Shown: in pieces, positions 1-11,047 of the stretch
Position numbering within the stretch: position 1 is the stretch's first letter
How the letters are laid out: every line of letters begins with the position of its first letter
Virus record (IMG/VR): IMGVR_UViG_2974696732_000001
Source of the DNA: a virus
Taxonomy: Duplodnaviria; Heunggongvirae; Uroviricota; Caudoviricetes
DNA: 58,707 nucleotides
Direction: 5' to 3' (one strand)
Made by a program: the position numbers and the translations under genes
The notes under the pieces: model-generated
What the model saw: only the letters and a program-made list of their open reading frames with translations
Told to the model about the DNA's origin: nothing
Database searches by the model: none

Positions 1-541
1 GTCCGGGATATCTCGCAGGTCTTACAAGCATTTGGAGGCACATTCCTAGGTCTAACACGCATCTGGCCCTCGAATCCAAGGCAAATAGGCTTCATAAGCA
101 TCGAAATTAGCCCCGAAAAATCACTCAAAACAAGCAGGAATCACGATATTTCGCCCCTAAATCGGACATTTTGCCCTGATTCTGCCCCGAATCCAGCAAT
201 TTTAACAGTCATTCGTAAAGCAGCCCCAATCCAGCCCTCATTCAGCCCCTAAATCCCCCGAAAATTAGGCATTCATCGTAAATGGACCCCACAATCTAAG
301 GTTGAATAGGCTCACATGCCTTAGATTGATAGGATTGGTGTCGATTCTCCCCATATACACGAGACACTGACCAATCTGGCTGTGATTGGGGATATCAGAA
401 ATCCCCGGCAGTCTTAGAAGCCATTCGTAAATAGACTAAGTAAGCATACACGCATTATAGGTTGTTCTATGTATATGGGGTACAAGGACACCTATGACTA
501 CCGGCCTTGAATCATAGCTTTGTTGTCCATGTATATGGGAA

Positions 542-571
542 AAGCCCACACCAAAGTGTGGGCTTATTTTT
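542..571 (+). terminator. Intrinsic terminator-like hairpin in the non-coding left end
   Basis: AAGCCCACAC-CAAA-GTGTGGGCTT followed by ATTTTT. Confidence 0.6.
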
Positions 572-744
572 CTAACCAAATATGTCTCCAAAATCCGGGA
601 GTTTTCGGCCCCTTCGTAAAGGGAATCTCCGGGAAATTTAGGACGCTATCGTAAAGGGGAAAAAGTCGGACATGACGGACAAATCGTTGTCGATATTGGT
701 AGTCATCTAGTTAGTTAGGTTAGCTAAGTGTCCGGGGCGGACAA

Positions 745-830
745 TTGAAAGGTCCCTGGGGAGAGGCCGACCTTCCTCTAATTAAGCCCTCGCCAGAATG
801 ACTGATAGGGCCCCCAGGGACACACTTTAT
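745..830 (-). ncRNA. Candidate ~85-nt three-way-junction small RNA
   Basis: Lies downstream of promoter 837-865. Stems 752-761/812-821, 762-766/775-779 and 786-790/807-811. No ORF; a U-run follows. Confidence 0.45.
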
Positions 831-836
831 ACTTCT

Positions 837-865
837 ATGTTAGCAAGGCAGTGTTACCTTGTCAA
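837..865 (-). promoter_or_regulatory. sigma70/HrdB-type promoter
   Basis: TTGACA-17-TAACAT on the minus strand. Confidence 0.75.
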
Positions 866-877
866 CATCACTTTAGG

Positions 878-1087
878 TCACCATTCCAGCTCGTCTTCCA
901 CGCAGTAGTGGGACACGAACGGAACGACCCATCGGGTATTGAGAAGATGACCCCTCTCCGTCCACAGAGTCAGAGTTGCAGTCTTGGAATCGAACTCGAT
1001 TCCCTTTCCGCCTCCCTGAATGTTATCGAAGATGAGTTCCCTTCGGACTCCCTCTTCCAGAACGATTACGGTTACCCTGTGAGTCAT
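878..1087 (-). CDS. Hypothetical early protein (69 aa)
   Basis: RBS AAGGGGA 4 nt before ATG; directly follows the 1097-1273 gene. Confidence 0.75.
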   Translation of the reverse strand: MTHRVTVIVLEEGVRRELIFDNIQGGGKGIEFDSKTATLTLWTERGHLLNTRWVVPFVSHYCVEDELEW

Positions 1088-1096
1088 TGCTTCCCC

Positions 1097-1273
1097 TTAC
1101 ACCGGCTCGTTCGGAATGATTACCTCGGTGTTGTCAGCGTTTCGGTAAACCGAGCAGTGACCACAAAGAGGTGTCTCAACATCGTTCAGGTTGAAGGTGC
1201 CGATGGCCCTGCGAGCGAAGCAACCTTCGCAGTCTTCGTTCTCTTCCGGACCGAAGGCCATGACCATCGCCAT
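1097..1273 (-). CDS. Small CxxC...CxxC zinc-finger-like protein (58 aa, not in ORF track)
   Basis: Translated by hand: MAMVMAFGPEENEDCEGCFARR...PLCGHCSVY...; RBS GAAAGGGG; own promoter. Confidence 0.75.
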   Translation of the reverse strand: MAMVMAFGPEENEDCEGCFARRAIGTFNLNDVETPLCGHCSVYRNADNTEVIIPNEPV

Positions 1274-1296
1274 GTCTTTCCCCTTTCGTTGATACG

Positions 1297-1325
1297 AGTC
1301 TAGCAGACTACAAGGACACTGTCTA
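1297..1325 (-). promoter_or_regulatory. Early promoter
   Basis: TAGACA-17-TAGACT. Confidence 0.8.
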
Positions 1326-1403
1326 CCCTGCCGGGCGATTGTCCGGGGCCGCCAAAATCCCCCTAAACCCTTCTGGGCTAGGGGGACTGGCGTGCCTACT
1401 GCA

Positions 1404-2417
1404 TTACGCAGCGAGGCTCAGGACCGCCTTACGGATGCGGTTCTTTTCGGCGTTGACCACCGGGTCGAAACCGCTGGCAGCGATGAACAGGTTGTCCACG
1501 TTGCCACCACGGGGCATCCGGTACCAGTCGATACGCTCGGTCAGAGCGTTCAGGGCACCGGCCATGGTTCCGGCCAGAGATTGAGTGGTCTTCGGACCGG
1601 GGGCCGTGTCGGTGAAGATGCCCATGAGCAGGTCACGCTTCGACTCCCACTTGACCATGCTGCCCTTGACATCCTTCTCGGGCTTGGGGTAGAGAGCCTG
1701 AACGATGCTGTCGAACTGGTCGCGCGTGCACTTGGCAGCGGCCAGCGTGGTCAGCTCACGCTCCAGCTCATCCCCGTACGCGAAGGTGATGTTCAGGGCC
1801 TCACGCGCGGCAGCCATGCGACCCTCGATGGTCTGCGTGTGGCGCATCTTGAACTGCTGCTTCACACCGTTACGGAGTGCGAAGTTCAGCGTGTTCTGAC
1901 ACACGACACGGACCGGAGTGACGGACGCCTGAACGGCCACGGAACCATCGTGAGAGGTGTTGACCAGCAGATAGAGCTTGGTCACGTCGTCGTCACCGAT
2001 GACGATGTCACGAGAGATGGACAGAGACCCGAAGACCACACGCCCATCCTTGATGGAACCGGCAGTCTCCCAGGTTCCACCACCCGCGAGGATGCCGTCA
2101 CCGAAGCCGAACAGGTCTTCGTTCTGGACGACCTTGTACCGCTCGCCCACCGTGGCCAGAACGTCGTTCCGACCGGTGAAGGGGTTGGTACGGACCACCA
2201 TGTGCGGCTCGGTCACGAAGTCATAGGAGTCCGAGACCAGACCCATGATTTCCTTGACCGACTCCAGACGGACGTCCCAGCCCTTGAGGTGAGCCAGAGA
2301 CAGCATCTCGTCGGTGGTCAGCTCTCCCTCGAACACGGTTCCGAGGTTGTGCCACGCGGGCTCGTTGCGAGAAGCGAACGCGACCTGACCCTTGGAACCA
2401 ATCTCAAGACCGTGCAT
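1404..2417 (-). CDS. DUF932-family (phage/plasmid TIGR03299-like) protein, 337 aa
   Basis: Motifs AWHNLG, WETAGSIKDGRVVF, LLVNTSHDGS, TPVRVVCQNTL, MRHT. Start moved to ATG 2417 (RBS AGGAGG, downstream of the promoter). Confidence 0.85.
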   Translation of the reverse strand: MHGLEIGSKGQVAFASRNEPAWHNLGTVFEGELTTDEMLSLAHLKGWDVRLESVKEIMGLVSDSYDFVTEPHMVVRTNPFTGRNDVLATVGERYKVVQNEDLFGFGDGILAGGGTWETAGSIKDGRVVFGSLSISRDIVIGDDDVTKLYLLVNTSHDGSVAVQASVTPVRVVCQNTLNFALRNGVKQQFKMRHTQTIEGRMAAAREALNITFAYGDELERELTTLAAAKCTRDQFDSIVQALYPKPEKDVKGSMVKWESKRDLLMGIFTDTAPGPKTTQSLAGTMAGALNALTERIDWYRMPRGGNVDNLFIAASGFDPVVNAEKNRIRKAVLSLAA

Positions 2418-2475
2418 GTTGTGCCTCCTAGGCAGATTGGTGTAAGGGCTGGTTTCCCTGCCCTTCGATGTCTCT

Positions 2476-2505
2476 AGTCTAGCAGTAAGCAAGGGTGGAT
2501 GTCTA
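2476..2505 (-). promoter_or_regulatory. Early promoter
   Basis: TAGACA-18-TAGACT. Confidence 0.8.
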
Positions 2506-2612
2506 CCCACACTGCCGGGCTCGATGTCCATAATGTCCGATTTGCCGGTTGGCCGGGCCGGACACACCGAAGCCCCCTCCGGAGAGGGGGCAGAGTGCGA
2601 GTCTTAGGAGAC

Positions 2613-3059
2613 TCAGTAGGCCGCGTCCAGCAGGGCACGCTCCCAGTCGGCCAGGTACATGCCGTTCAGCTTGGCCACGTAGGCGTCCACGATGTCCTTG
2701 GAGTCCTTGAGACCCAGACCCGTCTTCTCGCGGAGCTGCTTGATGCACTGAATCTTCTTGTGGGAACCGACCTCACGAACGATGTCCTTGACCAGCTCCT
2801 CACCCTGCGCCTTGACGCGCTTCTCGATGTCCCGGAGACGGGTCAGCTCCCAGCTCGTGGGCTGCTCGGCGTCGGCCTTGCCGGAGGCGTAGCCGTTCTT
2901 GTGGCCCTCGTTGTAGCCCTTGTCCTCGGCCACCCGCTGGACCTCGATGTGGTGGTCCATCATGCGACGGGCCAGACGCATCGCCTGGTCGAAGCTCATG
3001 TGCGGCTGCTCGTCGTGCAGCATGACCAGGTAGACGGCGAGGTTGACGTTGGCGCTCAT
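2613..3059 (-). CDS. Protein with a ribosomal L7/L12 C-terminal-like motif
   Basis: KIQCIKQLREKTGLGLKDSKDIVD resembles the bL12 motif KIxxIKxVRxxTGLGLKEAKDLVE. Confidence 0.7.
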   Translation of the reverse strand: MSANVNLAVYLVMLHDEQPHMSFDQAMRLARRMMDHHIEVQRVAEDKGYNEGHKNGYASGKADAEQPTSWELTRLRDIEKRVKAQGEELVKDIVREVGSHKKIQCIKQLREKTGLGLKDSKDIVDAYVAKLNGMYLADWERALLDAAY

Positions 3060-3105
3060 GTTAGTCTCCGTTTCTCAGGGGGTCCGTCCCCCTTTCGATG
3101 TTCTA

Positions 3106-3135
3106 AGTCTACACGATGACAGGGACAAGGGTCAA
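3106..3135 (-). promoter_or_regulatory. Early promoter
   Basis: TTGACC-18-TAGACT. Confidence 0.85.
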
Positions 3136-3201
3136 CACCGCCTGTGTGCTGATTTTTGTCCGGGCCCGACACGGGCCCCAGAAGTCAAGGGCCCGGTAGG
3201 G

Positions 3202-3492
3202 TCAAGGGTTCGTGTGTCCCCTTTTCAGTAGTATCTGTTCGATGACGAATTTGGAATCCATCACACGATTGAATTCGTCATCTGAGCGACTTTCCGTTCT
3301 TCCTGCCCACGCATTGAGCAGAGAGATGATGAATTGAAACATCACCGCTTGCACAGGCTCAGGGTAGGTAGAAAGGAGGTAGGCGAATGCATGGGGGTCG
3401 AAAGACCGTTTGTCCATTTCATCGATGAGCTTATTCGCCAGACGCTCATACGATGTGGGACGTGGTGTTACGAGTCGCGCACCCTCATACAT
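3202..3492 (-). CDS. Hypothetical protein (start uncertain; ATG 3492 chosen)
   Basis: The 3' part of the track ORF 3202-3663 is protein-like; its 5' part overlaps the gene at 3527-3694. Confidence 0.55.
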   Translation of the reverse strand: MYEGARLVTPRPTSYERLANKLIDEMDKRSFDPHAFAYLLSTYPEPVQAVMFQFIISLLNAWAGRTESRSDDEFNRVMDSKFVIEQILLKRGHTNP

Positions 3493-3526
3493 GTCAGGTG
3501 CGATGATGCTTGTTCGTTTGAAGGGA

Positions 3527-3694
3527 CTACGCGCCACCCTCTCCCCCAAAATCCTGCGTTGTACCGTAGCCGTCTGAGACACTGACAGACAGGCCCAGCA
3601 CCTTTGCCATGAACTCAGCCGTAGCTGTGGCAAAGGGCCAGGCACTGTCGTGAGCGTCATCATCAGGCGTGTCGATTTCGATGATGACTGACAT
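3527..3694 (-). CDS. Small acidic hypothetical protein (55 aa, not in track)
   Basis: MSVIIEIDTPDDDAHDSAWPF...; RBS AGGATAGGA; packed behind the lsr2-like gene. Confidence 0.65.
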   Translation of the reverse strand: MSVIIEIDTPDDDAHDSAWPFATATAEFMAKVLGLSVSVSDGYGTTQDFGGEGGA

Positions 3695-3703
3695 GTTCCT
3701 ATC

Positions 3704-4222
3704 CTATCGCGCGTGAACCTCTACGTCCATCCCGAGCACCACCGGGGAGCCACAGCCGCAGTGCGACAGGCTGTAACCGCACTTGCACACCTCGCGCTCC
3801 GAGAGACGGATACGCTTGTTGCCGTACCAAGCGGTGTACTCCGTACGGGGCGAACGGGTCGGGTTGGCGTGCGGACGGACATCCTTGCCCGTCACCTTGA
3901 CGTGGACGCCGGGCGCAGCGGGCTTGACCTCCGGGTTGTCCGCCTTGTAAGCGGCCAGCACCTCAGCGGAGAGACGACCACGGGCCGAAACGGTCATGCC
4001 CTTGGAAGTGGCCCACGCACGGACCGCCTTCGCATCGAACTGTCCGGCCTTGGGAGCGGCCTTGACGACCTTGCGCGGAGTGGCGTCGGTGTCGGTGAAG
4101 ACCTTGCCCGACTTCTCAGCCTCCGCGATGGCCTCGTATGCGGCAGCGCTCATCCGGCCACGGGACTCCTTGGCCAGGCCCAGAGAGACAGCGTACGCGC
4201 GACGGGTCATGTTGACGTTCAT
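3704..4222 (-). CDS. Lsr2-like DNA-binding protein with two RGR motifs and a C-terminal Cys/His cluster
   Basis: AKAVRAWATSKGMTVSARGRLSAEVLAAYKA matches the Lsr2 DNA-binding domain; degenerate N-terminal copy ESRGRMSAAAYEAI; CKCGYSLSHCGCG. Confidence 0.8.
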   Translation of the reverse strand: MNVNMTRRAYAVSLGLAKESRGRMSAAAYEAIAEAEKSGKVFTDTDATPRKVVKAAPKAGQFDAKAVRAWATSKGMTVSARGRLSAEVLAAYKADNPEVKPAAPGVHVKVTGKDVRPHANPTRSPRTEYTAWYGNKRIRLSEREVCKCGYSLSHCGCGSPVVLGMDVEVHAR

Positions 4223-4249
4223 GGGGTTTCCTTCCCTCGGTGTGCACTC

Positions 4250-4278
4250 AGTCTATCGGATTGAAGGCGGAGAGGCAA
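4250..4278 (-). promoter_or_regulatory. Early promoter (proximal, lsr2-like gene)
   Basis: TTGCCT-17-TAGACT. Confidence 0.75.
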
Positions 4279-4319
4279 GCCCCGGTGCAGAGGTTGGTTT
4301 CCCTCCCCTTCATGTCTCT

Positions 4320-4349
4320 AGTATAGAGGACGTAACAGGGTCATGTCTA
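4320..4349 (-). promoter_or_regulatory. Early promoter (distal, tandem)
   Basis: TAGACA-18-TATACT. Confidence 0.75.
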
Positions 4350-4420
4350 CAGCCTAGAATGTCCGTTTTGTCCGATATGCCCGTTGTCCGGGCCCGACAT
4401 GCCCCCGAAGGGGCAAGGGG

Positions 4421-5155
4421 CTAAGCCTTCCTGCGCTTAGGAACCTTAGAGGCGAATCGGATATCCGCCTTACCAAAGATGCAAAGGCCACACGTCACAC
4501 ATGCGCCTCCATCCTTAGTGATAAGGGGAATGCGCTTGGCATTCTCAGGGCAGATAGCGCCAGGCTTACCAGTTTCGGTAAGCATGAATTCCTTGCCCTT
4601 TTCGTGAGTCTCGTCAAGGTAGGCAAGACGCACAGACGGATATTCCTTTTGCGTTTCCAGCGCCTTTTCCTTGTTCTCACTGTCTACACTGAGATACACA
4701 GAGAGATTGGGCAGACCGTAGATGAATCCCACGTACTCGAAAGAGCGCGTGTAAATCCAGAATTGCACATCCGGAAAGGATTCACAGGTCATTTCGATGG
4801 CCTCTGCATAGGTGGCAGAGAAAATGTCACCATCTGCGTGCCAGCGGAATACCTTGGGAACGTTGTGCTTTTCGCATTCCTCTCGGAACTCACTCACCAT
4901 TTCGGCAAGCAAGTAAACCATTCGAATGAGGCTTGCGTCTTTCAGCAATTCCCAATTGTGCAGGGCAAGGTCACGGAATGCCGGGTATTGCTTTTCCAGC
5001 TTACCGGCATAGCAGACCGTCTCACACACGCCGGTCGCGCCAGGGCAGGAATACGCCTTGCCACTGGGCAGGGAGAATGCGTTTTTGATGAGAGACTGAG
5101 TGCCAGCACCGTTTGCACGATTGGCAGTCTTACGGTCGTGCGAGCGCTTGAGCAT
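4421..5155 (-). CDS. gp88-like (mycobacteriophage gene product 88) Cys-rich, possibly Fe-S/radical-SAM-like protein
   Basis: FSLPSGKAYSCPGATGVCETVCYAGK, FRWHADGD, FWIYTRS, C-terminal CPE...CVTCGLC. Start moved to ATG 5155 (RBS GAAAGGA). Confidence 0.7.
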   Translation of the reverse strand: MLKRSHDRKTANRANGAGTQSLIKNAFSLPSGKAYSCPGATGVCETVCYAGKLEKQYPAFRDLALHNWELLKDASLIRMVYLLAEMVSEFREECEKHNVPKVFRWHADGDIFSATYAEAIEMTCESFPDVQFWIYTRSFEYVGFIYGLPNLSVYLSVDSENKEKALETQKEYPSVRLAYLDETHEKGKEFMLTETGKPGAICPENAKRIPLITKDGGACVTCGLCIFGKADIRFASKVPKRRKA

Positions 5156-5181
5156 GACAGTCCTTTCGTTGACGTAAGTCG

Positions 5182-5210
5182 AGTCTATCAGAGACAGGCT
5201 ACGTAAACAA
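5182..5210 (-). promoter_or_regulatory. Early promoter
   Basis: TTGTTT-17-TAGACT. Confidence 0.7.
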
Positions 5211-5297
5211 GCCCTCAAAATGTCCGTTTTGCCCGATGTCCGGGGCGGCCAAAGGCCCCCTCCAAACGGAGGGGGCCAAGTGGGTTGAACTGGTGAC

Positions 5298-5471
5298 TCA
5301 CTCGGAGTCGGAAGGAGCGAACTCGCCCTGCTCGAACGCGATGTCGAGGAAGCGCTGCGCCTGCTCGCTGTCCAGGTGGGCGATGGCCTCGTTCACGAGG
5401 GTCTGCCGGGTGCTGGCCTTGAGCGGGGTGTTGGCGAAGGAACGGGCGATGGTGTCGAGGACGAGCTGCAT
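5298..5471 (-). CDS. Small hypothetical protein (57 aa, not in track)
   Basis: MQLVLDTIARSFANTPLKAST...; RBS GAAGGAG; own promoter and terminator hairpin; high GC3. Confidence 0.8.
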   Translation of the reverse strand: MQLVLDTIARSFANTPLKASTRQTLVNEAIAHLDSEQAQRFLDIAFEQGEFAPSDSE

Positions 5472-5517
5472 GGTGATTCTCCTTCTCTAGGGGGTGTTTC
5501 CCCCTTTCGATACCCTA

Positions 5518-5547
5518 AGTCTACACGACGCCTAGGGCTGTGTGCAA
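5518..5547 (-). promoter_or_regulatory. Early promoter
   Basis: TTGCAC-18-TAGACT. Confidence 0.8.
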
Positions 5548-5606
5548 GCCTGAATCTGAGGTGATTTTTGTCCGGCCCGGACACAGACCCCCGAAGGGGC
5601 CCGGTG

Positions 5607-5666
5607 TCAGAAGAGAATGAGCAGAATGAACAGGACTGCGATGAGCCACACATACCCATCACGCAT
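5607..5666 (-). CDS. 19-aa hydrophobic micropeptide
   Basis: MRDGYVWLIAVLFILLILF; RBS GGGAGG; overlaps the stop of the upstream micro-ORF; ends at the cassette hairpin. Confidence 0.5.
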   Translation of the reverse strand: MRDGYVWLIAVLFILLILF

Positions 5667-5736
5667 TCTCGCACACCTCCCGGTACCAAGCGTAGTGCGT
5701 GTAGGGGTAGAAGTGAAGCCATTCCACGAAGTACAT
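5659..5736 (-). CDS. 25-aa aromatic-rich micropeptide
   Basis: MYFVEWLHFYPYTHYAWYREVCENA; RBS AGGAG. Confidence 0.5.
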   Translation of the reverse strand: MYFVEWLHFYPYTHYAWYREVCENA

Positions 5737-5743
5737 GACACTC

Positions 5744-6043
5744 CTAGAAGAGTTCGGGTCCGGACTCGCTGTCTTCCGTCCAGTCCTCAGTATACTCGAT
5801 GAACTCGACGTTCAGCAACCACGCGATAAGAACTCGGTGGTGTCCGTTGAAAACGGTGTTCGACTCCACCATGTAGATGATGGGGTCAAGGATGCCCTTG
5901 GAGCAAGATTCAACAAACTCAGGGTTTCCCTCAAAGAGGTCGTTGAACTTCTCTTCGAACATCTGCCAGGTGGTGTGACCCTTGGCCTCAGCATCATTGA
6001 AGATAGCCGACTCAATCAGCTTCGCAACAGATACCTTGGCCAT
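5744..6043 (-). CDS. ParB/Srx-like N-terminal domain protein
   Basis: ILDPIIY...VFNGHHRVLIA resembles the ParBc DGHHR motif. Confidence 0.6.
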   Translation of the reverse strand: MAKVSVAKLIESAIFNDAEAKGHTTWQMFEEKFNDLFEGNPEFVESCSKGILDPIIYMVESNTVFNGHHRVLIAWLLNVEFIEYTEDWTEDSESGPELF

Positions 6044-6069
6044 GTCGCCCTCCTTGGCTTGATAGGTCT

Positions 6070-6098
6070 AGTCTACATGAGTACAAGGGCTGTGTCTA
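6070..6098 (-). promoter_or_regulatory. Early promoter
   Basis: TAGACA-17-TAGACT. Confidence 0.8.
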
Positions 6099-6154
6099 GT
6101 GCCGGGCCAAATTGTCCGGGGCGGCCAAATGGGGCCCCGGAGGGCCCCATTGGG

Positions 6155-6427
6155 TCAGTCTTCGCTGGTGTCCTTCTGGCTCACCAGCTTCGCACGGCCG
6201 AGCAGAGAGGCGTCGGCCTCCTTCCACTTCTTGACCGGCTTGCCGACTCGCACACGGGGGAACCGAGCGATGATGGCACGCGCACGGGTCTCGTCCGCCT
6301 CCAGGATGTCGAACCGCTGGAAGGGGGCACGGGTGGCGATGGGGCCGAACTCGATGTCCACCCCCTGGACAATCATGGCCACGCGGAGGGAGAGGGCGTC
6401 ACGGACGGGAACGATACCGGCAATCAT
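6155..6427 (-). CDS. Hypothetical early protein (90 aa)
   Basis: RBS AGGAG; high GC3; followed by hairpin and palindrome. Confidence 0.75.
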   Translation of the reverse strand: MIAGIVPVRDALSLRVAMIVQGVDIEFGPIATRAPFQRFDILEADETRARAIIARFPRVRVGKPVKKWKEADASLLGRAKLVSQKDTSED

Positions 6428-6541
6428 GTGAACTCCTGAGAGTCGAAGTAAGCTGGGGTATTCAGTTATCAGAGACTTTGGCAGGAAGGGAAAAACCTCA
6501 CGTTGCGAGGCCCTGTGGCCTGTCCCCTTGTGCTTAGCTAG

Positions 6542-6571
6542 AGTCTATCAGCCTGACCTAGTTGCAGTCAA
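6542..6571 (-). promoter_or_regulatory. Early promoter with a ~110-nt leader containing a terminator-like hairpin (6491-6510)
   Basis: TTGACT-18-TAGACT; leader contains CCTCGC-AAC-GTGAGG-TTTTT. Confidence 0.7.
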
Positions 6572-6740
6572 CCAGGTATTCGGGCTCGTCGTCCTCGGAG
6601 ACCGTCCAGATGTCGGCCAGCCAACCCTTACGGATGACACCGGCCGTCTCGAACTTGTGCGGCTCAGCGGACTCACGAACCGCATCTGCGTACTCCTCTT
6701 CGGAGATGATGCTGTAACCCTCGGGAATCTCGAACGTCAT
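6558..6740 (-). CDS. Small acidic hypothetical protein (60 aa)
   Basis: RBS GAGGAG; own promoter. Confidence 0.75.
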   Translation of the reverse strand: MTFEIPEGYSIISEEEYADAVRESAEPHKFETAGVIRKGWLADIWTVSEDDEPEYLVDCN

Positions 6741-6785
6741 GACCGCTCCTCTCGTTGGGAGGCTTCCCTCCCTCTCGATGTTCTA

Positions 6786-6814
6786 AGTCTACATGACCGA
6801 TGGGACAGGCGCAA
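6786..6814 (-). promoter_or_regulatory. Early promoter
   Basis: TTGCGC-17-TAGACT. Confidence 0.8.
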
Positions 6815-6876
6815 CAACCAATATTCGTTAGTCTGCCTAAGTTGTCCGGGGCCGACAGGCCCCGAAGGGCCCTTTG

Positions 6877-7032
6877 TCAGTCTCCCATGTCGTCCAGATG
6901 AGCATCCGGAGCGGGCTCGAACTCAAGGAAGGTGTCTTCGAAAATCACCATCCATGCGTAGCCCTCACGATTGTCCGGATTGCACTTGCCACGGTGCATG
7001 TCACCCATGGCAGCGCCACATTCGATGCACAT
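6877..7032 (-). CDS. Small Cys/His protein (51 aa, not in track)
   Basis: MCIECGAAMGDMHRGKC...; TGATG overlap with the upstream stop. Confidence 0.7.
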   Translation of the reverse strand: MCIECGAAMGDMHRGKCNPDNREGYAWMVIFEDTFLEFEPAPDAHLDDMGD

Positions 7033-7256
7033 CAGCGCCCCAGGTTGTAGAGAGAGGCAACCAGCATCTCAACTCGGTTGACTCGAATCGAAAGGCGGGA
7101 GCCGTTCGCGTCGGTGAGGGTGAACAGCTTCATGTCGTTGTGAACCGCTTCGGTCCATGCCAGATTGATGGCATCGGGCGTGGTGTCCTTGATGTAGGCC
7201 ACCAGCGTCTTGTCACGGTCGTGGAAGTACAGCTCAACACGAACATCGTTCAGCAT
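7032..7256 (-). CDS. Hypothetical early protein (74 aa)
   Basis: RBS AGAGGA; own promoter. Confidence 0.75.
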   Translation of the reverse strand: MLNDVRVELYFHDRDKTLVAYIKDTTPDAINLAWTEAVHNDMKLFTLTDANGSRLSIRVNRVEMLVASLYNLGR

Positions 7257-7301
7257 GGTGCATCCTCTCTTCCGGGAGCTTTTCTCCCTTTCGATGCTCT
7301 A

Positions 7302-7330
7302 ACTCTACAGCATGTGGGAGGCAGATACAA
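7302..7330 (-). promoter_or_regulatory. Early promoter
   Basis: TTGTAT-17-TAGAGT. Confidence 0.75.
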
Positions 7331-7388
7331 CCCCAATTTGAAAGTGTCCGGGCCCGACACGGGCCCCGAAGGGCCCGGCGGAAAGGTG

Positions 7389-7673
7389 TTACTTCTTGGC
7401 CTTGGTGCGACGGTTGCTGTGGTTGCCGTTCATGAGGGCGGTGAAGTCCAGCATGATGTTCTGCTTGAAGTTGGTCGCTCCGTGGAACTTGCCGTCCTGG
7501 TCACGGATGACGATGCGGACCTCGGTGGAGTCGCTGCCCGGAGTGGTCTTCCAGGTCTCCAGCCGGATGCTGTAGACGGACTTGGAACCCTTGACCTTGA
7601 AGCCCTCGGAGATGGTGACGGAGGAGACGATGTTGTGGTTGACGTCGGTCTTCTTGGCGAGGGTAACGGCCAT
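7389..7673 (-). CDS. Basic hypothetical early protein (94 aa)
   Basis: RBS GAGGAG; own promoter and hairpin. Confidence 0.8.
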   Translation of the reverse strand: MAVTLAKKTDVNHNIVSSVTISEGFKVKGSKSVYSIRLETWKTTPGSDSTEVRIVIRDQDGKFHGATNFKQNIMLDFTALMNGNHSNRRTKAKK

Positions 7674-7727
7674 TTGAAGCTCCTCAGAGTCTCGCTTGGG
7701 GGTTCCTTCCCCCTTGCTGATAGCTAA

Positions 7728-7757
7728 AGTCTACACGACCCAAGGGACATCGCGCAA
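7728..7757 (-). promoter_or_regulatory. Early promoter
   Basis: TTGCGC-18-TAGACT. Confidence 0.8.
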
Positions 7758-7818
7758 CCCCTGAATTTATGTCCTTTTTGTCCGTCCGGGCCGGACAGGG
7801 CCCCGGAGGGCCCGTCCA

Positions 7819-8160
7819 TCACTCGGAGGGGAAAGACTCAGCGAAGAACTTGGCACGCTCCCTCTTGGCACGGCTGTGAGCACCGTCACGGCTTGCGTAC
7901 TCCTGGAACTCCGACACGGTGTCGATGGTGAGATGTCCGTTTTCGTCCAGCTTGGCCACACGAACGGTGTAGAGTCGGGGAGACATGTCGTCGAAGCGCT
8001 CGGAGGAGACGAAGAACATCGTCTTCCCCTGCAAGTCGCTGTAGCACATCTCGGAGATGCGGGAGTTGAAGAAGCGCAGGGTGGCCCGGTCGAAGAAGTG
8101 GTTGTTCTGGTCCTTGGCGATGGCCTTGACGTCTTCCAGAGAGAACATCTGAGTGCGCAT
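7819..8160 (-). CDS. Hypothetical early protein (HFFDRATLRFFNSR motif)
   Basis: Start moved to ATG 8160, downstream of the promoter; RBS GAGAGGA. Confidence 0.8.
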   Translation of the reverse strand: MRTQMFSLEDVKAIAKDQNNHFFDRATLRFFNSRISEMCYSDLQGKTMFFVSSERFDDMSPRLYTVRVAKLDENGHLTIDTVSEFQEYASRDGAHSRAKRERAKFFAESFPSE

Positions 8161-8191
8161 TGTGTGGGTTCCTCTCCCTCGGTGTAAGTAG

Positions 8192-8221
8192 AGTCTAACA
8201 CAGCTCAAGGACAGGCCACAA
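8192..8221 (-). promoter_or_regulatory. Early promoter
   Basis: TTGTGG-18-TAGACT. Confidence 0.7.
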
Positions 8222-8282
8222 CACCTACCGGGCCTTTTTCTGAAAGTGTCCGGCCCCGACAGGGGCCCGAAGGCCCCTTCTG

Positions 8283-8606
8283 TCAGGTGAGCTGAGCCAG
8301 GAGAGAACTGATTTCCTGACGGAGTTCGGACTGAGGCCGGTAGCCTCGCTCCGCCTTCAACTGACGCTCGAAGTAGGCGCGAAGTTCGGTCTTGTTGTAC
8401 GGACCGTACGCCTGGTCAGCGTAGTCGATGTCCTCGAACGGAATGGGGCAGGAGCAACCGGAGTCGCTTGCCACGTAGTACCGCCCTCGGGCCTCCTTCC
8501 ACACTCGCGTCTCGTTGAACTGGTAGGATTCGTGGTCCCAGTCGAACCCACCGACGTAGGTCAGGCTGTCCAGCGAAATACGCTCGGGCTTCGAAAGGTC
8601 GGTCAT
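8283..8606 (-). CDS. Hypothetical early protein (DSGCSCPIPFE motif)
   Basis: RBS GAGGAGG; high GC3. Confidence 0.8.
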   Translation of the reverse strand: MTDLSKPERISLDSLTYVGGFDWDHESYQFNETRVWKEARGRYYVASDSGCSCPIPFEDIDYADQAYGPYNKTELRAYFERQLKAERGYRPQSELRQEISSLLAQLT

Positions 8607-8615
8607 GGTTCCTCC

Positions 8616-8759
8616 TCAGATGTCTTTACGCTGAACTTTATCACACTTGGAGCACTGGCGCACCTGAATCAGCGCCTTCCAGGTACCGAGCTTGGGGAAG
8701 AGAGGGGAGTCGAACGTTCCCACCATCTGCTTCCAGTTGGACCACTTGTGGAAACACAT
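8616..8759 (-). CDS. Small Cys-containing protein (47 aa)
   Basis: MCFHKW...RQCSKCDK; RBS GGAGG; start moved to ATG 8759. Confidence 0.7.
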   Translation of the reverse strand: MCFHKWSNWKQMVGTFDSPLFPKLGTWKALIQVRQCSKCDKVQRKDI

Positions 8760-8784
8760 CCCGTCCTCCGTTTTCGTTAGCTCT

Positions 8785-8813
8785 AGTCTACAGGGCCAAT
8801 TTTTGAGTCGCAA
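8785..8813 (-). promoter_or_regulatory. Early promoter
   Basis: TTGCGA-17-TAGACT. Confidence 0.8.
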
Positions 8814-8880
8814 CCCCAAAGTCCAGATTTTTAGTCGCAGATTTTTAGTCCGGGGCGGACAGGCCCGAAGGCCCTTCCGC

Positions 8881-9195
8881 TCACTCCCAAGGCTTGTAGT
8901 CACTCCAGTCCGCACCCTCGCGCGGCTCGATGAGGATTTCGATGGTGTCGCCCAGACGGTGATTCACGCTGTACAGAGAACGGGAAGAACCCTGGTAGCG
9001 ACGCTGCGCCTTGGCCCACTTGACCAGCTTCTCAGCCTGCTTGGCCGAACGACAGGGCCATGCCTCGATGCACAGACCGTAGTTGAACCACCATCCGCCC
9101 TCTTCGCTGCCTCCCCATGCACGCTGCAATTCGTAGACGTTCACCCAGTGCTTGTTCCGACGACGCTGGCCCATACGGAGTGACTTCTTCGCCAT
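8881..9195 (-). CDS. Hypothetical early protein (AWGGSEEGGWW motif)
   Basis: RBS AAGGAGG; own promoter and hairpin. Confidence 0.8.
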   Translation of the reverse strand: MAKKSLRMGQRRRNKHWVNVYELQRAWGGSEEGGWWFNYGLCIEAWPCRSAKQAEKLVKWAKAQRRYQGSSRSLYSVNHRLGDTIEILIEPREGADWSDYKPWE

Positions 9196-9218
9196 GTTTC
9201 CTCCTTGGTGATGACCTA

Positions 9219-9247
9219 AGTCTAACAGACGCCTAGGACAGACTCAA
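9219..9247 (-). promoter_or_regulatory. Early promoter
   Basis: TTGAGT-17-TAGACT. Confidence 0.8.
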
Positions 9248-9309
9248 CATGCTTGTAAGGATATTTTTTCATTTAGGGAGTGTCCCGCCCGGACAAAAAA
9301 TTCGCCCAC

Positions 9310-9370
9310 AAATTCACCCCTCTTTTCTAAGGAAATCTAGGCGAAAATCCTTGAAAAGAGGGGTGAATTT
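9310..9370. repeat. Long inverted repeat (18 bp perfect plus 5 bp); possible bidirectional terminator or cruciform
   Basis: AAATTCACCCCTCTTTTC(T)AAGGA ... TCCTTGAAAAGAGGGGTGAATTT. Confidence 0.8.
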
Positions 9371-9393
9371 TTTCTATGAAGTTTTTTCGAAGG

Positions 9394-9606
9394 TCAGATG
9401 GCGACTTTTTCGTCTTTTCCTGCCTCACAAAGGCAGTATTTCGAATGTGTCGCCTCGATTGCGGTAAAACCGCTTTCCTCGTAGCGTGCGAGGAGATTCG
9501 CCAGAAGGGACGAGTTGAATACCGAAGTTTTCGATTTCAGCCCGTCCCTTTCCAGCAAAAGGGACATACTGTGGAATTGTACCGGTTTCGGCCTTTTCCT
9601 GAACAT
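9394..9606 (-). CDS. Hypothetical protein (70 aa, AT-richer than neighbours)
   Basis: RBS AAGGGG; follows 9625-9768. Confidence 0.55.
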   Translation of the reverse strand: MFRKRPKPVQFHSMSLLLERDGLKSKTSVFNSSLLANLLARYEESGFTAIEATHSKYCLCEAGKDEKVAI

Positions 9607-9624
9607 GAATGCCCCTTTTAGGTG

Positions 9625-9768
9625 TTACGCCAGTTCGGCCATGTGCGGGTAGGCGTCCCAGTCGAAGCCGTCCACACGGTCCGCATCCCGAACGTCGGAA
9701 ACGGGAACCGTGATGGTGGTGAAGACACCCGCGTCAGCGGCCTGCTCAAGAAGGTCACGAAGGTCCAT
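9625..9768 (-). CDS. Small acidic protein (47 aa, not in track)
   Basis: MDLRDLLEQAADAGVF...; RBS GAGAGGA; own promoter. Confidence 0.75.
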   Translation of the reverse strand: MDLRDLLEQAADAGVFTTITVPVSDVRDADRVDGFDWDAYPHMAELA

Positions 9769-9800
9769 GGTGTGTACTTCCTCTCGCTTGGTGTAGTACC

Positions 9801-9829
9801 AGTCTACACAAGGGGTAGGGCAGATGCAA
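9801..9829 (-). promoter_or_regulatory. Early promoter
   Basis: TTGCAT-17-TAGACT. Confidence 0.8.
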
Positions 9830-9884
9830 GCCCAAAGTCTCCGGGAATTTTTCGTGCCTATCGTACACGCGCGGGGGAAATGTG

Positions 9885-10030
9885 GGGTATGTACGTAACG
9901 CCCCTTAAAAGGGCCTATATCCTAGATGTCCCATATGTACCCTATGCCCTATATGGGTGGGTATGGGATGGTATGCCCTATATGTACCCCTATGTATGGG
10001 TATGTACCCAATGTCCGTTTTGCCCCATAT
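9885..10030. repeat. Low-complexity TATG/TATGTACCC repeat tract
   Basis: TATGTACCC three times plus many GGTATG and CCTATAT units in non-coding DNA. Confidence 0.7.
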
Positions 10031-10091
10031 GTCGTCCGGGGCGGACAGGTAACGCTTAGGTAAAGCTTCCAAGATTCTTGCTGAATTGGGG

Positions 10092-10119
10092 TTGCATGGG
10101 TGTCCGGGGCGGGTATGCT
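10092..10119 (+). promoter_or_regulatory. Rightward promoter with a TGTCCG palindrome copy in its spacer
   Basis: TTGCAT-16-TATGCT; TGTCCGGGGCGGGTA at 10101-10115. Confidence 0.6.
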
Positions 10120-10152
10120 GTAAGCACAGCAACGAACAAGGGAGACAGGGAC

Positions 10153-10590
10153 ATGAACACCACCACCGCTCACCAGTGCAAGTACCAGAATGAAACCCAG
10201 GTCAACGCCCGTATCCGTAGGCAGGTGCTCGCTACGGTGCTGTACCTGGCCACCCTTACGGGTGACAGTGACGGTGCTACGTGGGCCAATTGTGTGGGGT
10301 GTGGGGAGCGTGCCCACGTGGGAGGTACCCCTAGGGCTATGGACACGTTCAACCTGGGGCACGTGCTGGCAGACGCTGAGGGTGGGATGTACTGCCCTTG
10401 CAACCTGCTCCCCCTGTGCAGGCAGTGCAACGCTGACATGGGTAAGGAGACCCTTACTGATGTGCTTGTTCCCCGTTACGACAATCGGGAAATGTGGAAC
10501 GGTAAGGTTCTGCCCGACCCTGGCACGGTGGCCGCTAAGCCTGAGAGCAACCGTGGACGTGCCCGCTGGAACGCCCCTGTGACCGTCTGA
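10153..10590 (+). CDS. HNH (His-Me finger) endonuclease-like protein
   Basis: CVGCG...GHVLADAEGG...NLLPLCRQCN; start moved to ATG 10153; terminator hairpin at 10605-10632. Confidence 0.7.
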   Translation: MNTTTAHQCKYQNETQVNARIRRQVLATVLYLATLTGDSDGATWANCVGCGERAHVGGTPRAMDTFNLGHVLADAEGGMYCPCNLLPLCRQCNADMGKETLTDVLVPRYDNREMWNGKVLPDPGTVAAKPESNRGRARWNAPVTV

Positions 10591-10604
10591 GACGCTGTGA
10601 AGGT

Positions 10605-10632
10605 GCCCCCTAGGGTAGTTTGCCTAGGGGGC
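10605..10632 (+). terminator. Hairpin after the HNH gene
   Basis: GCCCCCTAGG-N8-CCTAGGGGGC. Confidence 0.7.
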
Positions 10633-10828
10633 TAATTCATGCCCGCAGACGGGCCCTCAGCCCTTTTGAAAACGGCTTTCAGGTTGGGTGGAACCTTCCC
10701 CGGAACCTTCCCGCGACAGAATGTCAAGGGGTATGGGCGCACTATTTGGATTGTTACAAAGGTATGCGAAGCATGTATCATACATCACAAAAAATTACTA
10801 ACATTTCGCACACCTTTTAATGTAACAA

Positions 10829-11047
10829 TTAGGTAACGTCCGGGTCGGACTCGTCGGACATATCGAAGCTCGGAGCAGGCCCGAATACCTTACCCAATGC
10901 GTGTCCACGAAAGATGATTTCTGCTTCTTCCTTGTTTACGCCTCGTGCAATGCAAGTCAGCATATCATAGATACGCATCAGCATGATTGCATTGACGACA
11001 GAAGAAGCGTCCTCATCGAACATATCAGTCTCTGTCTTATCAGTCAT
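10829..11047 (-). CDS. Hypothetical protein
   Basis: Overlaps the thyX stop; RBS AAGG; start moved to ATG 11047. Confidence 0.7.
   Translation of the reverse strand: MTDKTETDMFDEDASSVVNAIMLMRIYDMLTCIARGVNKEEAEIIFRGHALGKVFGPAPSFDMSDESDPDVT

Follow-up and report, generated by a model that had tools for sequence, protein, structure and literature searches.

We analysed a stretch of 58,707 nucleotides (IMG/VR virus record IMGVR_UViG_2974696732_000001; hereafter the window) and concentrated on an array of small leftward genes near its left end, which an earlier note, made from the letters alone, had described as a series of self-contained promoter, gene, hairpin and palindrome cassettes in an actinophage. 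The host group was borne out: the window starts at base 1 of the genome of a cluster BE1 Streptomyces siphovirus of the genus Samistivirus. Positions 800-9900 matched 82 Streptomyces phage records, with two matching places in every record, and these records were cluster BE1 phages with genomes of ~131-135 kb. The best relative of this segment was phage Bartholomune, which covers the whole query (100%) at 98.9% identity and with unchanged coordinates; its right-hand repeat copy starts at 121,100 and gives a direct terminal repeat (DTR) of 10,780 bp. The DTR limits of the window were taken from Bartholomune, whose repeat end was mapped onto the window. Published BE1 DTRs are 10.7-11.5 kb long and contain 20-25 open reading frames (ORFs), including an lsr2-like gene (PMC5764925). 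We found that the array holds 21 small leftward genes and one non-coding RNA in about 15 units, with one to three genes per unit. The repeat and the units are listed below (P, promoter; g, gene).

1..10778, no strand: left direct terminal repeat; the end sequence of the Bartholomune DTR maps to window position 10778
9282..9829, minus: unit 1, P21 (-35 at 9829-9824, -10 TAGACT at 9806-9801), g21 9768-9625, g20 9606-9394, long hairpin with T-tract, palindrome 9294-9282
8848..9247, minus: unit 2, P19 (-10 at 9224-9219), g19 9195-8881, TTCG hairpin, palindrome 8860-8848
8248..8813, minus: unit 3, P18 (-10 at 8790-8785), g18 8759-8616, g17 8606-8283 (DUF7574), hairpin 8278-8261, palindrome 8260-8248
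7784..8221, minus: unit 4, P16 (-10 at 8197-8192), g16 8160-7819 (DUF7447), hairpin 7813-7798, palindrome 7796-7784
7346..7757, minus: unit 5, P15 (-10 at 7733-7728), leader hairpin, g15 7673-7389, hairpin 7377-7360, palindrome 7358-7346
6844..7330, minus: unit 6, P14 (-10 TAGAGT at 7307-7302), leader hairpin, g14 7256-7032, g13 7032-6877, TTCG hairpin, palindrome 6856-6844
6114..6814, minus: unit 7, P12 (-10 at 6791-6786), leader hairpin, g12 6740-6558, P11, g11 6427-6155, hairpin 6151-6128, palindrome 6126-6114
5570..6098, minus: unit 8, P10 (-10 at 6075-6070), g10 6043-5744, two unannotated small ORFs, TTCG hairpin, palindrome 5582-5570
5238..5547, minus: unit 9, P9 (-10 at 5523-5518), leader hairpin 5505-5489, g9 5471-5298, hairpin 5277-5254, palindrome 5250-5238
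4386..5210, minus: unit 10, P8 (-10 at 5187-5182), g8 5155-4421 (Pfam GP88), hairpin 4415-4400, palindrome 4398-4386
3158..4349, minus: unit 11, tandem P7a (TAGACA-18-TATACT, 4349-4320, with its own leader hairpin) and P7b (-10 at 4255-4250), g7 4222-3704 (Lsr2-like), g6 3694-3527, g5 3537-3202, hairpin, palindrome 3170-3158
2551..3135, minus: unit 12, P4 (TTGACC-18-TAGACT, 3135-3106), leader hairpin 3093-3077, g4 3059-2613, hairpin 2591-2572, palindrome 2563-2551
1341..2505, minus: unit 13, P3 (TAGACA-18-TAGACT, 2505-2476), leader hairpin, g3 2417-1404 (DUF932), hairpin with T-tract, palindrome variant 1353-1341
878..1325, minus: unit 14, P2 (TAGACA-17-TAGACT, 1325-1297), g2 1273-1097, g1 1087-878, without a terminator of its own
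730..865, minus: unit 15, P0 (TTGACA-17-TAACAT, 865-837), ORF-less structured RNA of ~95 nt matching no Rfam family, palindrome 742-730

Seventeen promoter-like sites were present on the minus strand between 865 and 9829, with spacers of either 17 or 18 nt throughout. The -10 hexamer was TAGACT at 14 of them, which makes the counts of the earlier note exact, and TAGAGT (7307), TATACT (4325) or TAACAT (842) at the others. The -35 hexamer of all 17 sites followed T[TA]Gnnn, that is, TTGnnn or TAGACA. The 14 minus-strand TAGACT hexamers, which run from 1297 to 9806, were intergenic without exception. When the pattern T[TA]GNNN-N16-18-TAGACT was searched for, 14 matches were obtained on the minus strand of 745-9900 and one per strand elsewhere in the window (the other 49 kb), while 500 shuffles gave a mean of 0.1 and a maximum of 2. 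From their sequence the sites are predicted to be near-consensus promoters of the host sigma-HrdB type (TTGnnn or TAGACA, 17-18 nt, TAGACT). Start codons lay either 23-32 nt or 45-58 nt from the -10 hexamer, and the longer of these two classes holds a G-rich stem-loop starting within the conserved CATCGAAAGGG. A conserved transcript start, (A/T)AGAnCATCGAAAGGG, together with the G-rich leader hairpin was found at ~7 promoters, the others having the short leaders of 23-32 nt, and strong ribosome-binding sites lie downstream of many promoters, after the conserved start and the 5' stem-loop. P11 is internal to unit 7 (TTGACT-18-TAGACT, 6571-6542), overlaps the stop codon of g12 and has a leader of 114 nt. 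In the same region, 11-17 minus-strand TAGACT sites were counted in 14 other BE genomes and 5 in Coruscant.

Two of these sites showed further features. P7a (TAGACA-18-TATACT) and its leader hairpin are followed immediately by the -35 hexamer of P7b, without an intervening ORF (4250-4349, minus strand), and ~70-87 nt at this site are missing from Mildred21 and MulchMansion; the stretch looks like the remnant of an emptied cassette. P0 (745-865, minus strand) is the best consensus promoter of the array. The ORF-less RNA of ~95 nt that follows it has a 10-bp closing helix (GUCCCUGGGG...CCCCAGGGAC), ends at the palindrome and is conserved, as the last element of the array, in every BE1 relative seen.

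At the other end of the units, 14 GC-rich hairpins lie 3' of stop codons, with TTCG or TCCG loops in at least nine. A 15-bp palindrome, TGTCCGG-N-CCGGACA (GTCCGGNCCGGAC-like), comes next in every case, either 0-5 nt away or behind a short T-run. All palindrome matches in the 58.7-kb window were located below 10851, and the hairpin-plus-T-tract terminators elsewhere in the window had no palindrome attached. A general repeat finder independently recovered the boundaries as composite repeats, with nine copies of 38 nt, five copies of 41 nt and one pair of 108 nt at 73% identity. The earlier note had described a fixed grammar for almost every gene or gene pair; the order of promoter, hairpin and palindrome stood, but its other parts are less regular. 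An A-tract follows the palindrome at only ~8 of the 14 boundaries, the leader hairpin is limited to the promoters mentioned above, and three units are short of one element, P12-g12 and P2-g2-g1 having no terminator and P7a no gene. A scan for canonical terminators detected 0 of the 14 hairpins since T-tracts were lacking, and its overall hits were below the shuffle mean. A scan of 1-11000 against Rfam revealed no known RNA family, only two sub-threshold chance matches.

We then compared the content of the array among relatives. The annotated DTR genes of 15 genomes were clustered, using the deposited annotations, and cassette flux was counted among 13 BE1 genomes. The BE1 backbone was syntenic, and ~12 slots were polymorphic among the 13 genomes. 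The g4 cassette, which occurs in 0, 1 or 2 copies among relatives, was the most variable in copy number, and the ParB-like g10 was present in 1 or 2 copies among BE1 genomes. Presence and absence were seen for g1, g9, g18 and the genes labelled x2, x3 and x6, and g16 alternated with x4. The gene content of unit 14 was the most variable among relatives, the terminal slot holding g2-g1, x1-g2, x1 or x5. More distant relatives differed in the order as well: in Karimac g18 lies before g19, g12 follows on the downstream side of g10, and two other slots are occupied by g4-like genes; in Coruscant g9 and x2 occupy different slots.

A comparative junction test was performed on 20 related genomes, in which close relatives with flanks 95-99% identical were compared. 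The earlier note had suggested aligning the region across related genomes and asking whether indel breakpoints fall in the boundary elements. We found that they do in recent events: in 4 of 4 pure whole-cassette indels the junction lay inside a repeated boundary. The unit P14-g14-g13-hairpin-palindrome is present in Jay2Jay and Warpy and missing from Evy and Targaryen, where the deletion junction lies within CCCGGACA, a sequence common to both flanking palindromes. The three other events were indels of g4 cassettes (Sushi23, Samisti12 and Tribute versus Cursive; the same three versus Lululemon; Lululemon versus Cursive), two cassettes being deleted in Cursive and one in Lululemon. Their junctions lay within (T)AGAGACATCGAA(A)GGG, which is the conserved transcript start (AGACATCGAA), and each of these indels joins the promoter of one cassette to the leader of another. 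Exact identity at the four junctions amounted to 8-13 nt, inside 22-30 nt of imperfect similarity. Some recent replacements broke directly after the palindrome and A-tract (Sushi23 versus EGole; Jay2Jay versus Evy). Others had their break at the ribosome-binding site, or at the stop codon next to the start of the hairpin. The exchange of the type known from T4-like phages that the earlier note had envisaged is thereby supported, both by these junctions and by the changed cassette order in distant relatives.

Taken jointly, we assign a probability of about 0.72 to the explanation that the array is a leftward early-gene module in the left DTR of a virulent BE1 siphovirus, built of ~15 autonomous early units whose boundaries recombine and so move cassettes. 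Upon DNA entry, host RNA polymerase would transcribe all units in parallel, and the hairpins would insulate the units from each other. The composite boundaries, ~100 nt in length, are dispersed repeats, and recombination between them by short homology deletes, duplicates or replaces whole cassettes. An ORF landing between two boundaries brings along, or acquires, early expression signals. In our reading, the boundary repeats do serve as substrates on which short-homology recombination shifts whole cassettes, yet they are not the sole places of recombination in the region, and there is no sign of a dedicated recombinase. Since the crossovers use at least three different elements as well as ORF edges, the process looks like general short-homology recombination and not site-specific recombination.

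Several observations weigh against this explanation. Some indels (g1, g18 and g14) affected single genes inside units, with microhomology only at the junction; a further event was an unequal exchange between the paralogues g12 and g13. In a coarse test with distant relatives (46 distinct breakpoints versus 12 relatives), breakpoints within non-coding sequence were not enriched at palindromes (6 observed versus 3.9 expected, p=0.18) or at promoters (11 observed versus 12.9 expected). The same comparisons showed ORF interiors to be depleted of breakpoints (7 observed versus 32 expected) and ORF edges to be mildly enriched. Within BE1, 76-94% of the DTR was alignable, no lower than the 75-92% of the adjacent leftward block, which has no cassettes; at BE1-BE2 distance the DTR was less alignable than this block (32% versus 54%). 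Most of the hairpins have no U-tract, which mycobacterial RNA polymerase needs, and so the hairpins may not terminate; they may instead attenuate transcription, be processing sites or stabilize 3' ends. The labels 'early' and 'host takeover' are drawn from analogy. Finally, four RNA-labelled public runs (metagenome or unknown) gave over 600-10200 only short metagenome contigs, which say nothing of transcript starts, ends or strand. The 'joints' listed in these runs have sides of 20-41 nt that are the repeated boundary elements themselves, and we rejected them as evidence for rearrangements.

One alternative is that boundaries are alike because each unit needs a strong promoter and a terminator, and that random illegitimate indels are filtered by selection, the repeats playing no part in exchange. 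The distant-relative breakpoints, which avoid ORF interiors without being concentrated in palindromes or promoters of the non-coding sequence, would be expected on this account, as would the ORF-precise indels of g1, g18 and g14 and a DTR that aligns within BE1 no worse than the adjacent operon-like block. What it does not predict is that all four recent whole-cassette junctions fall within boundary-to-boundary matches of 8-13 nt exact and 22-30 nt imperfect identity. The copy-number series (0, 1 or 2 for g4; 1 or 2 for g10) and the chimeric promoter-leader junctions are also the product to be expected of unequal crossing-over between repeats, and we therefore consider this alternative unlikely. 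It has also to be asked whether the boundaries work at the level of RNA, in long read-through transcripts where hairpin and palindrome would be tandem structures for processing (for example by RNase III) or for stabilizing 3' ends, and the TAGACT sites would only add transcription. Early RNAs of SPO1 and SP82 are processed between cistrons, the U-tract is missing from most hairpins here, and base pairing is possible in many copies between the palindrome's left arm and the hairpin's 3' arm, which gives alternative structures. The palindrome, however, shows no excess of G-U over A-C pairs and many non-isosteric mismatches, it is positioned after the T-tract where a hairpin with a T-tract exists, and hairpin-free copies occur, one of them on a promoter of the other strand. 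Together with 17 near-consensus promoter sites, far above chance, these features make an RNA-level account very improbable.

A dedicated site-specific system, in which the palindrome, or the hairpin with the palindrome, is targeted by a phage recombinase or nuclease that excises and inserts cassettes, would explain why every unit is bracketed by a palindrome, why one clean deletion crosses inside it and two replacements begin right after it, and why it evolves in concert within each lineage. The DTR even offers candidates in its HNH and ParB-like nuclease proteins. Against it, no tyrosine or serine recombinase domain was found in the DTR proteins scanned (g1-g20), BE phages are reported to have no integrase (PMC10690885), and 3 of the 4 clean cassette deletions cross in the promoter or leader and not in the palindrome. 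Each cassette moreover has its own promoter, unlike integron cassettes, and no attC-like architecture is present. We regard such a system as the least probable of the explanations considered. The integron comparison of the earlier note fails on the same grounds. The array does resemble an integron as an ordered series of small, unrelated and exchangeable genes parted by imperfect palindromes. Sites of the attC type (57-141 bp, with conserved core sites) are absent, however, the boundary being a hairpin and a 15-bp palindrome; integron cassettes are promoterless and read from one Pc promoter, whereas each unit here has its own; and no integrase domain was found in g1-g20, with crossovers that are not confined to one site.

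Preferring recombination between repeated boundaries, we find the closest known mechanism in the PeSL (promoter-early stem-loop) cassettes of T4-type phages, where indels and replacements arise via recombining promoter-stem-loop motifs (Arbiol et al. 2010, PMC2839356; Comeau et al. 2014, PMC4122927). Both systems have composite motifs of ~100 nt that join a strong host-type early promoter, here judged by sequence, to a GC stem-loop terminator. In both, many dispersed copies, confined in the present case to the 9-kb DTR array, lie beside small genes of unknown function in a plastic region. Junctions of indels and replacements between close relatives fall in the motifs (here 4 of 4 whole-cassette indels and most replacements), and the exchanged gene carries or gains expression signals. 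The differences are that the phage is an actinobacterial siphovirus and not a T4-type myovirus, that the hairpin lies upstream of the promoter and separate from it, whereas the PeSL stem-loop is inside or overlaps the promoter, and that the array is located in a terminal repeat. There is also an extra 15-bp palindrome and a conserved transcribed leader, the latter being the site of 3 of the 4 clean crossovers. As the window belongs to a Samistivirus siphovirus of Streptomyces, the array is an analogue of the PeSL family and not a member of it.

In architecture, the closest known systems are the SPO1 host-takeover module and the T5 pre-early (first-step-transfer) region, and the likeness to the SPO1 terminal repeat that the earlier note had drawn was strengthened by the position of the array in a long DTR, as in SPO1 and T5. 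The DTRs are of similar length (13.2 kb in SPO1, 10.1 kb in T5, 10.8 kb here) and full of small genes, with strong host-type promoters (predicted here), strong ribosome-binding sites and many short operons (PMC6873191; PMC5764925); the authors of the BE1 study themselves likened the DTRs to those of T5 and SPO1 (PMC5764925). In SPO1, small, early and highly expressed terminal-repeat genes shut off host functions (PMC6873191). The gene products differ, for Pfam and PHROGs detected no homologue of SPO1 gp37-60 or T5 A1/A2 among the DTR proteins, and a literature search that was not exhaustive yielded no account, for SPO1 or T5, of a palindrome at the boundaries or of shuffling mediated by them. 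The Cluster O mycobacteriophages, which are also actinobacteriophages, have a similarly built short palindrome (TGTyCG...CGrACA) that contains GC and varies at its centre; it has been described as a 17-bp dyad repeat of unknown function, TGTTCGG-N3-CCGAACA, with tens of mostly intergenic copies (Cresawn et al. 2015, PMC4351075). The present palindrome is 15 bp long (TGTCCG-N3-CGGACA) with another arm sequence, is confined to the terminal-repeat array and is joined to terminator hairpins, whereas the Cluster O repeat is genome-wide; its left arm varies, while the 7-bp arms of the Cluster O repeat are invariant.

The publications on BE phages that our literature searches found (genome announcements and a satellite paper) describe none of these promoters, palindromes or cassette junctions. 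The array described here provides a testable map of early transcription for ~90 sequenced virulent BE Streptomyces phages, whose DTR genes are almost all of unknown function, and it extends to siphoviruses of actinobacteria the boundary-mediated 'modular shuffling' that had so far been documented in T4-type phages. For Streptomyces engineering, the promoter, leader, terminator and palindrome are compact candidates for strong and insulated expression parts, and the lineage-specific palindrome points to a regulator of the early programme.

To gain insight into the palindrome itself, we examined its variation. The order of hairpin, palindrome and promoter is kept across the subfamily (Bmoc, Karimac and Coruscant), while the sequence of the palindrome is lineage-specific. 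Most BE1 phages have GTCCG-N3-CGGAC (the type of the window, also written TGTCCGGCCCGGACA); all 13 sites of Bmoc carry GGCCGCCCCGGCC, even though Bmoc and the window have orthologous cassettes; Karimac has GCCGCCCCGGC; and Coruscant has TGGCGCCCGGCGCCA, with a perfect TGGCGCC-C-GGCGCCA at 13 sites. Since a lineage-specific palindrome is found at every site, all copies in a genome must have changed together with dyad symmetry kept, and gene conversion among the copies could contribute to this. Among 66 distinct BE1 copies, the right arm CCGGACA was nearly invariant and the left arm varied at two positions; the mismatches comprised 20 G-U, 19 A-C and 120 others. An RNA hairpin was rejected on this spectrum, which gives no G-U excess over A-C. 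Further copies, not preceded by a hairpin, lie to the right of the array.

10034-10046 and 10101-10113, plus: palindrome copies without a hairpin, the second inside the 17-nt spacer of a rightward HNH promoter
10093-10121, plus: predicted HNH endonuclease promoter, TTGCAT 10093-10098, 17 nt, TATGCT 10116-10121

The spacer of the HNH promoter is filled by the left half and centre of the palindrome (GTCCGGGGCGG), and a full palindrome lies 55 nt upstream. The copy at 10101-10113 occupies a classic repressor-site position. Based on the mismatch spectrum, the placement of the palindrome beyond the T-tract wherever hairpin and T-tract are present, and the copies without a hairpin, we consider it most likely that the palindrome works at the DNA level, as the site of a dimeric protein specified by the phage; the concerted, symmetry-keeping change between lineages that share hosts suggests that the partner is specified by the phage. 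Candidate roles are shut-off, roadblock and insulation. A role as an activator site for the next promoter is unlikely, as the distance from its centre to the -10 hexamer is 44-76 nt with no helical phasing. We tentatively suggest, as a possibility that we hold with considerable doubt, that a dimeric factor encoded by the phage has the palindrome as its operator, co-evolves with it and controls or insulates all early units together, the boundary doubling as a portable recombination linker. If so, the terminal repeat would be a gene-capture platform in which an ORF recombined between boundaries joins one co-regulated early regulon at once, a regulon-level plug-in system of actinophages beyond what PeSL descriptions cover. 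We also considered a tie between the palindrome and the genome terminus, as the genome begins GTCCGGG, and rejected it; genome termini vary among relatives (GGCCAGT, GTGGGGG and ATGGGGG among them) without following the palindrome type. The right end of the DTR lies in an unrelated ATGTAT|CATACAT dyad.

The proteins encoded by the array were searched with Pfam and PHROGs. Pfam matches were obtained for g3 (DUF932), g7 (Lsr2 DNA-binding domain), g8 (GP88), g16 (DUF7447) and g17 (DUF7574), and for g4 with PF00542, the bL12 C-terminal domain (E=9e-8), as a short motif at residues 94-127. Beyond the Pfam matches, PHROGs yielded unnamed families only. No recombinase domain was found in g1-g20 with either database, g21 and the HNH protein being outside the scan. 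The products of 19 of the 21 genes are DUFs or unknown, the exceptions being the Lsr2-like g7 and g10; the latter is called a ParB-like nuclease domain protein in the records of relatives, and Pfam does not find that domain. A host-takeover role of the array genes, which the earlier note had proposed, would thus be an analogy and goes no further with 19 of 21 proteins in this category. Its description of the ORFs as unrelated and of differing composition holds for most of them, the GC content ranging from 0.49 to 0.66 and that of third codon positions (GC3) from 0.54 to 0.93, but g12 and g13 are paralogues. Many DTR ORFs have a GC3 above 0.8, with values of at least 0.9 in several (g4, g9 and g15) and ~0.55-0.6 in others (g5, g8 and g20), and the GC content of the DTR (1-10778) is 56.7% versus 48.3% in the remainder of the window (10779-58707). 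High GC3 would fit genes that are translated with the host tRNA pool at a time when the ~45 tRNAs of the phage have not yet been made, and the composition of the DTR is one indirect hint of early expression.

Some smaller features were noted within individual units. Between the stop codon of g10 and its terminator hairpin (5607-5741, minus strand) lie two unannotated small ORFs, the first of ~25 amino acids (MYFVEWLHFYPYTHYAWYREVCENA) and the second, which overlaps it, encoding a hydrophobic peptide of ~19 amino acids (MRDGYVWLIAVLFILLILF), possibly a small membrane peptide; this stretch is conserved in Mildred21, Samisti12 and Bmoc. Within g8, ~80-90 nt (4991-5083) share 75-78% nucleotide identity with mycobacteriophage D29-type genomes (gene 88 region) and with BK-cluster Streptomyces phages.

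To the right of the array follow the rightward HNH gene, the end of the DTR and then a tightly packed leftward block (thyX, hydrolase and endolysin), beyond which come the genes for structure and replication. An iteron-like run of repeats with a 9-10 bp period (ATGTnCCCATATG / GGGTATG) occupies 9914-10036, in the interval that separates the HNH gene from the first leftward promoter. At the gene-free left end of the genome (190-660) we found at least five copies of a ~27-nt repeat (CCGGGA...TCGTAAA), at 193-219, 260-285, 405-431, 597-623 and 629-655; they may serve as binding sites connected with the entry or the packaging of DNA.

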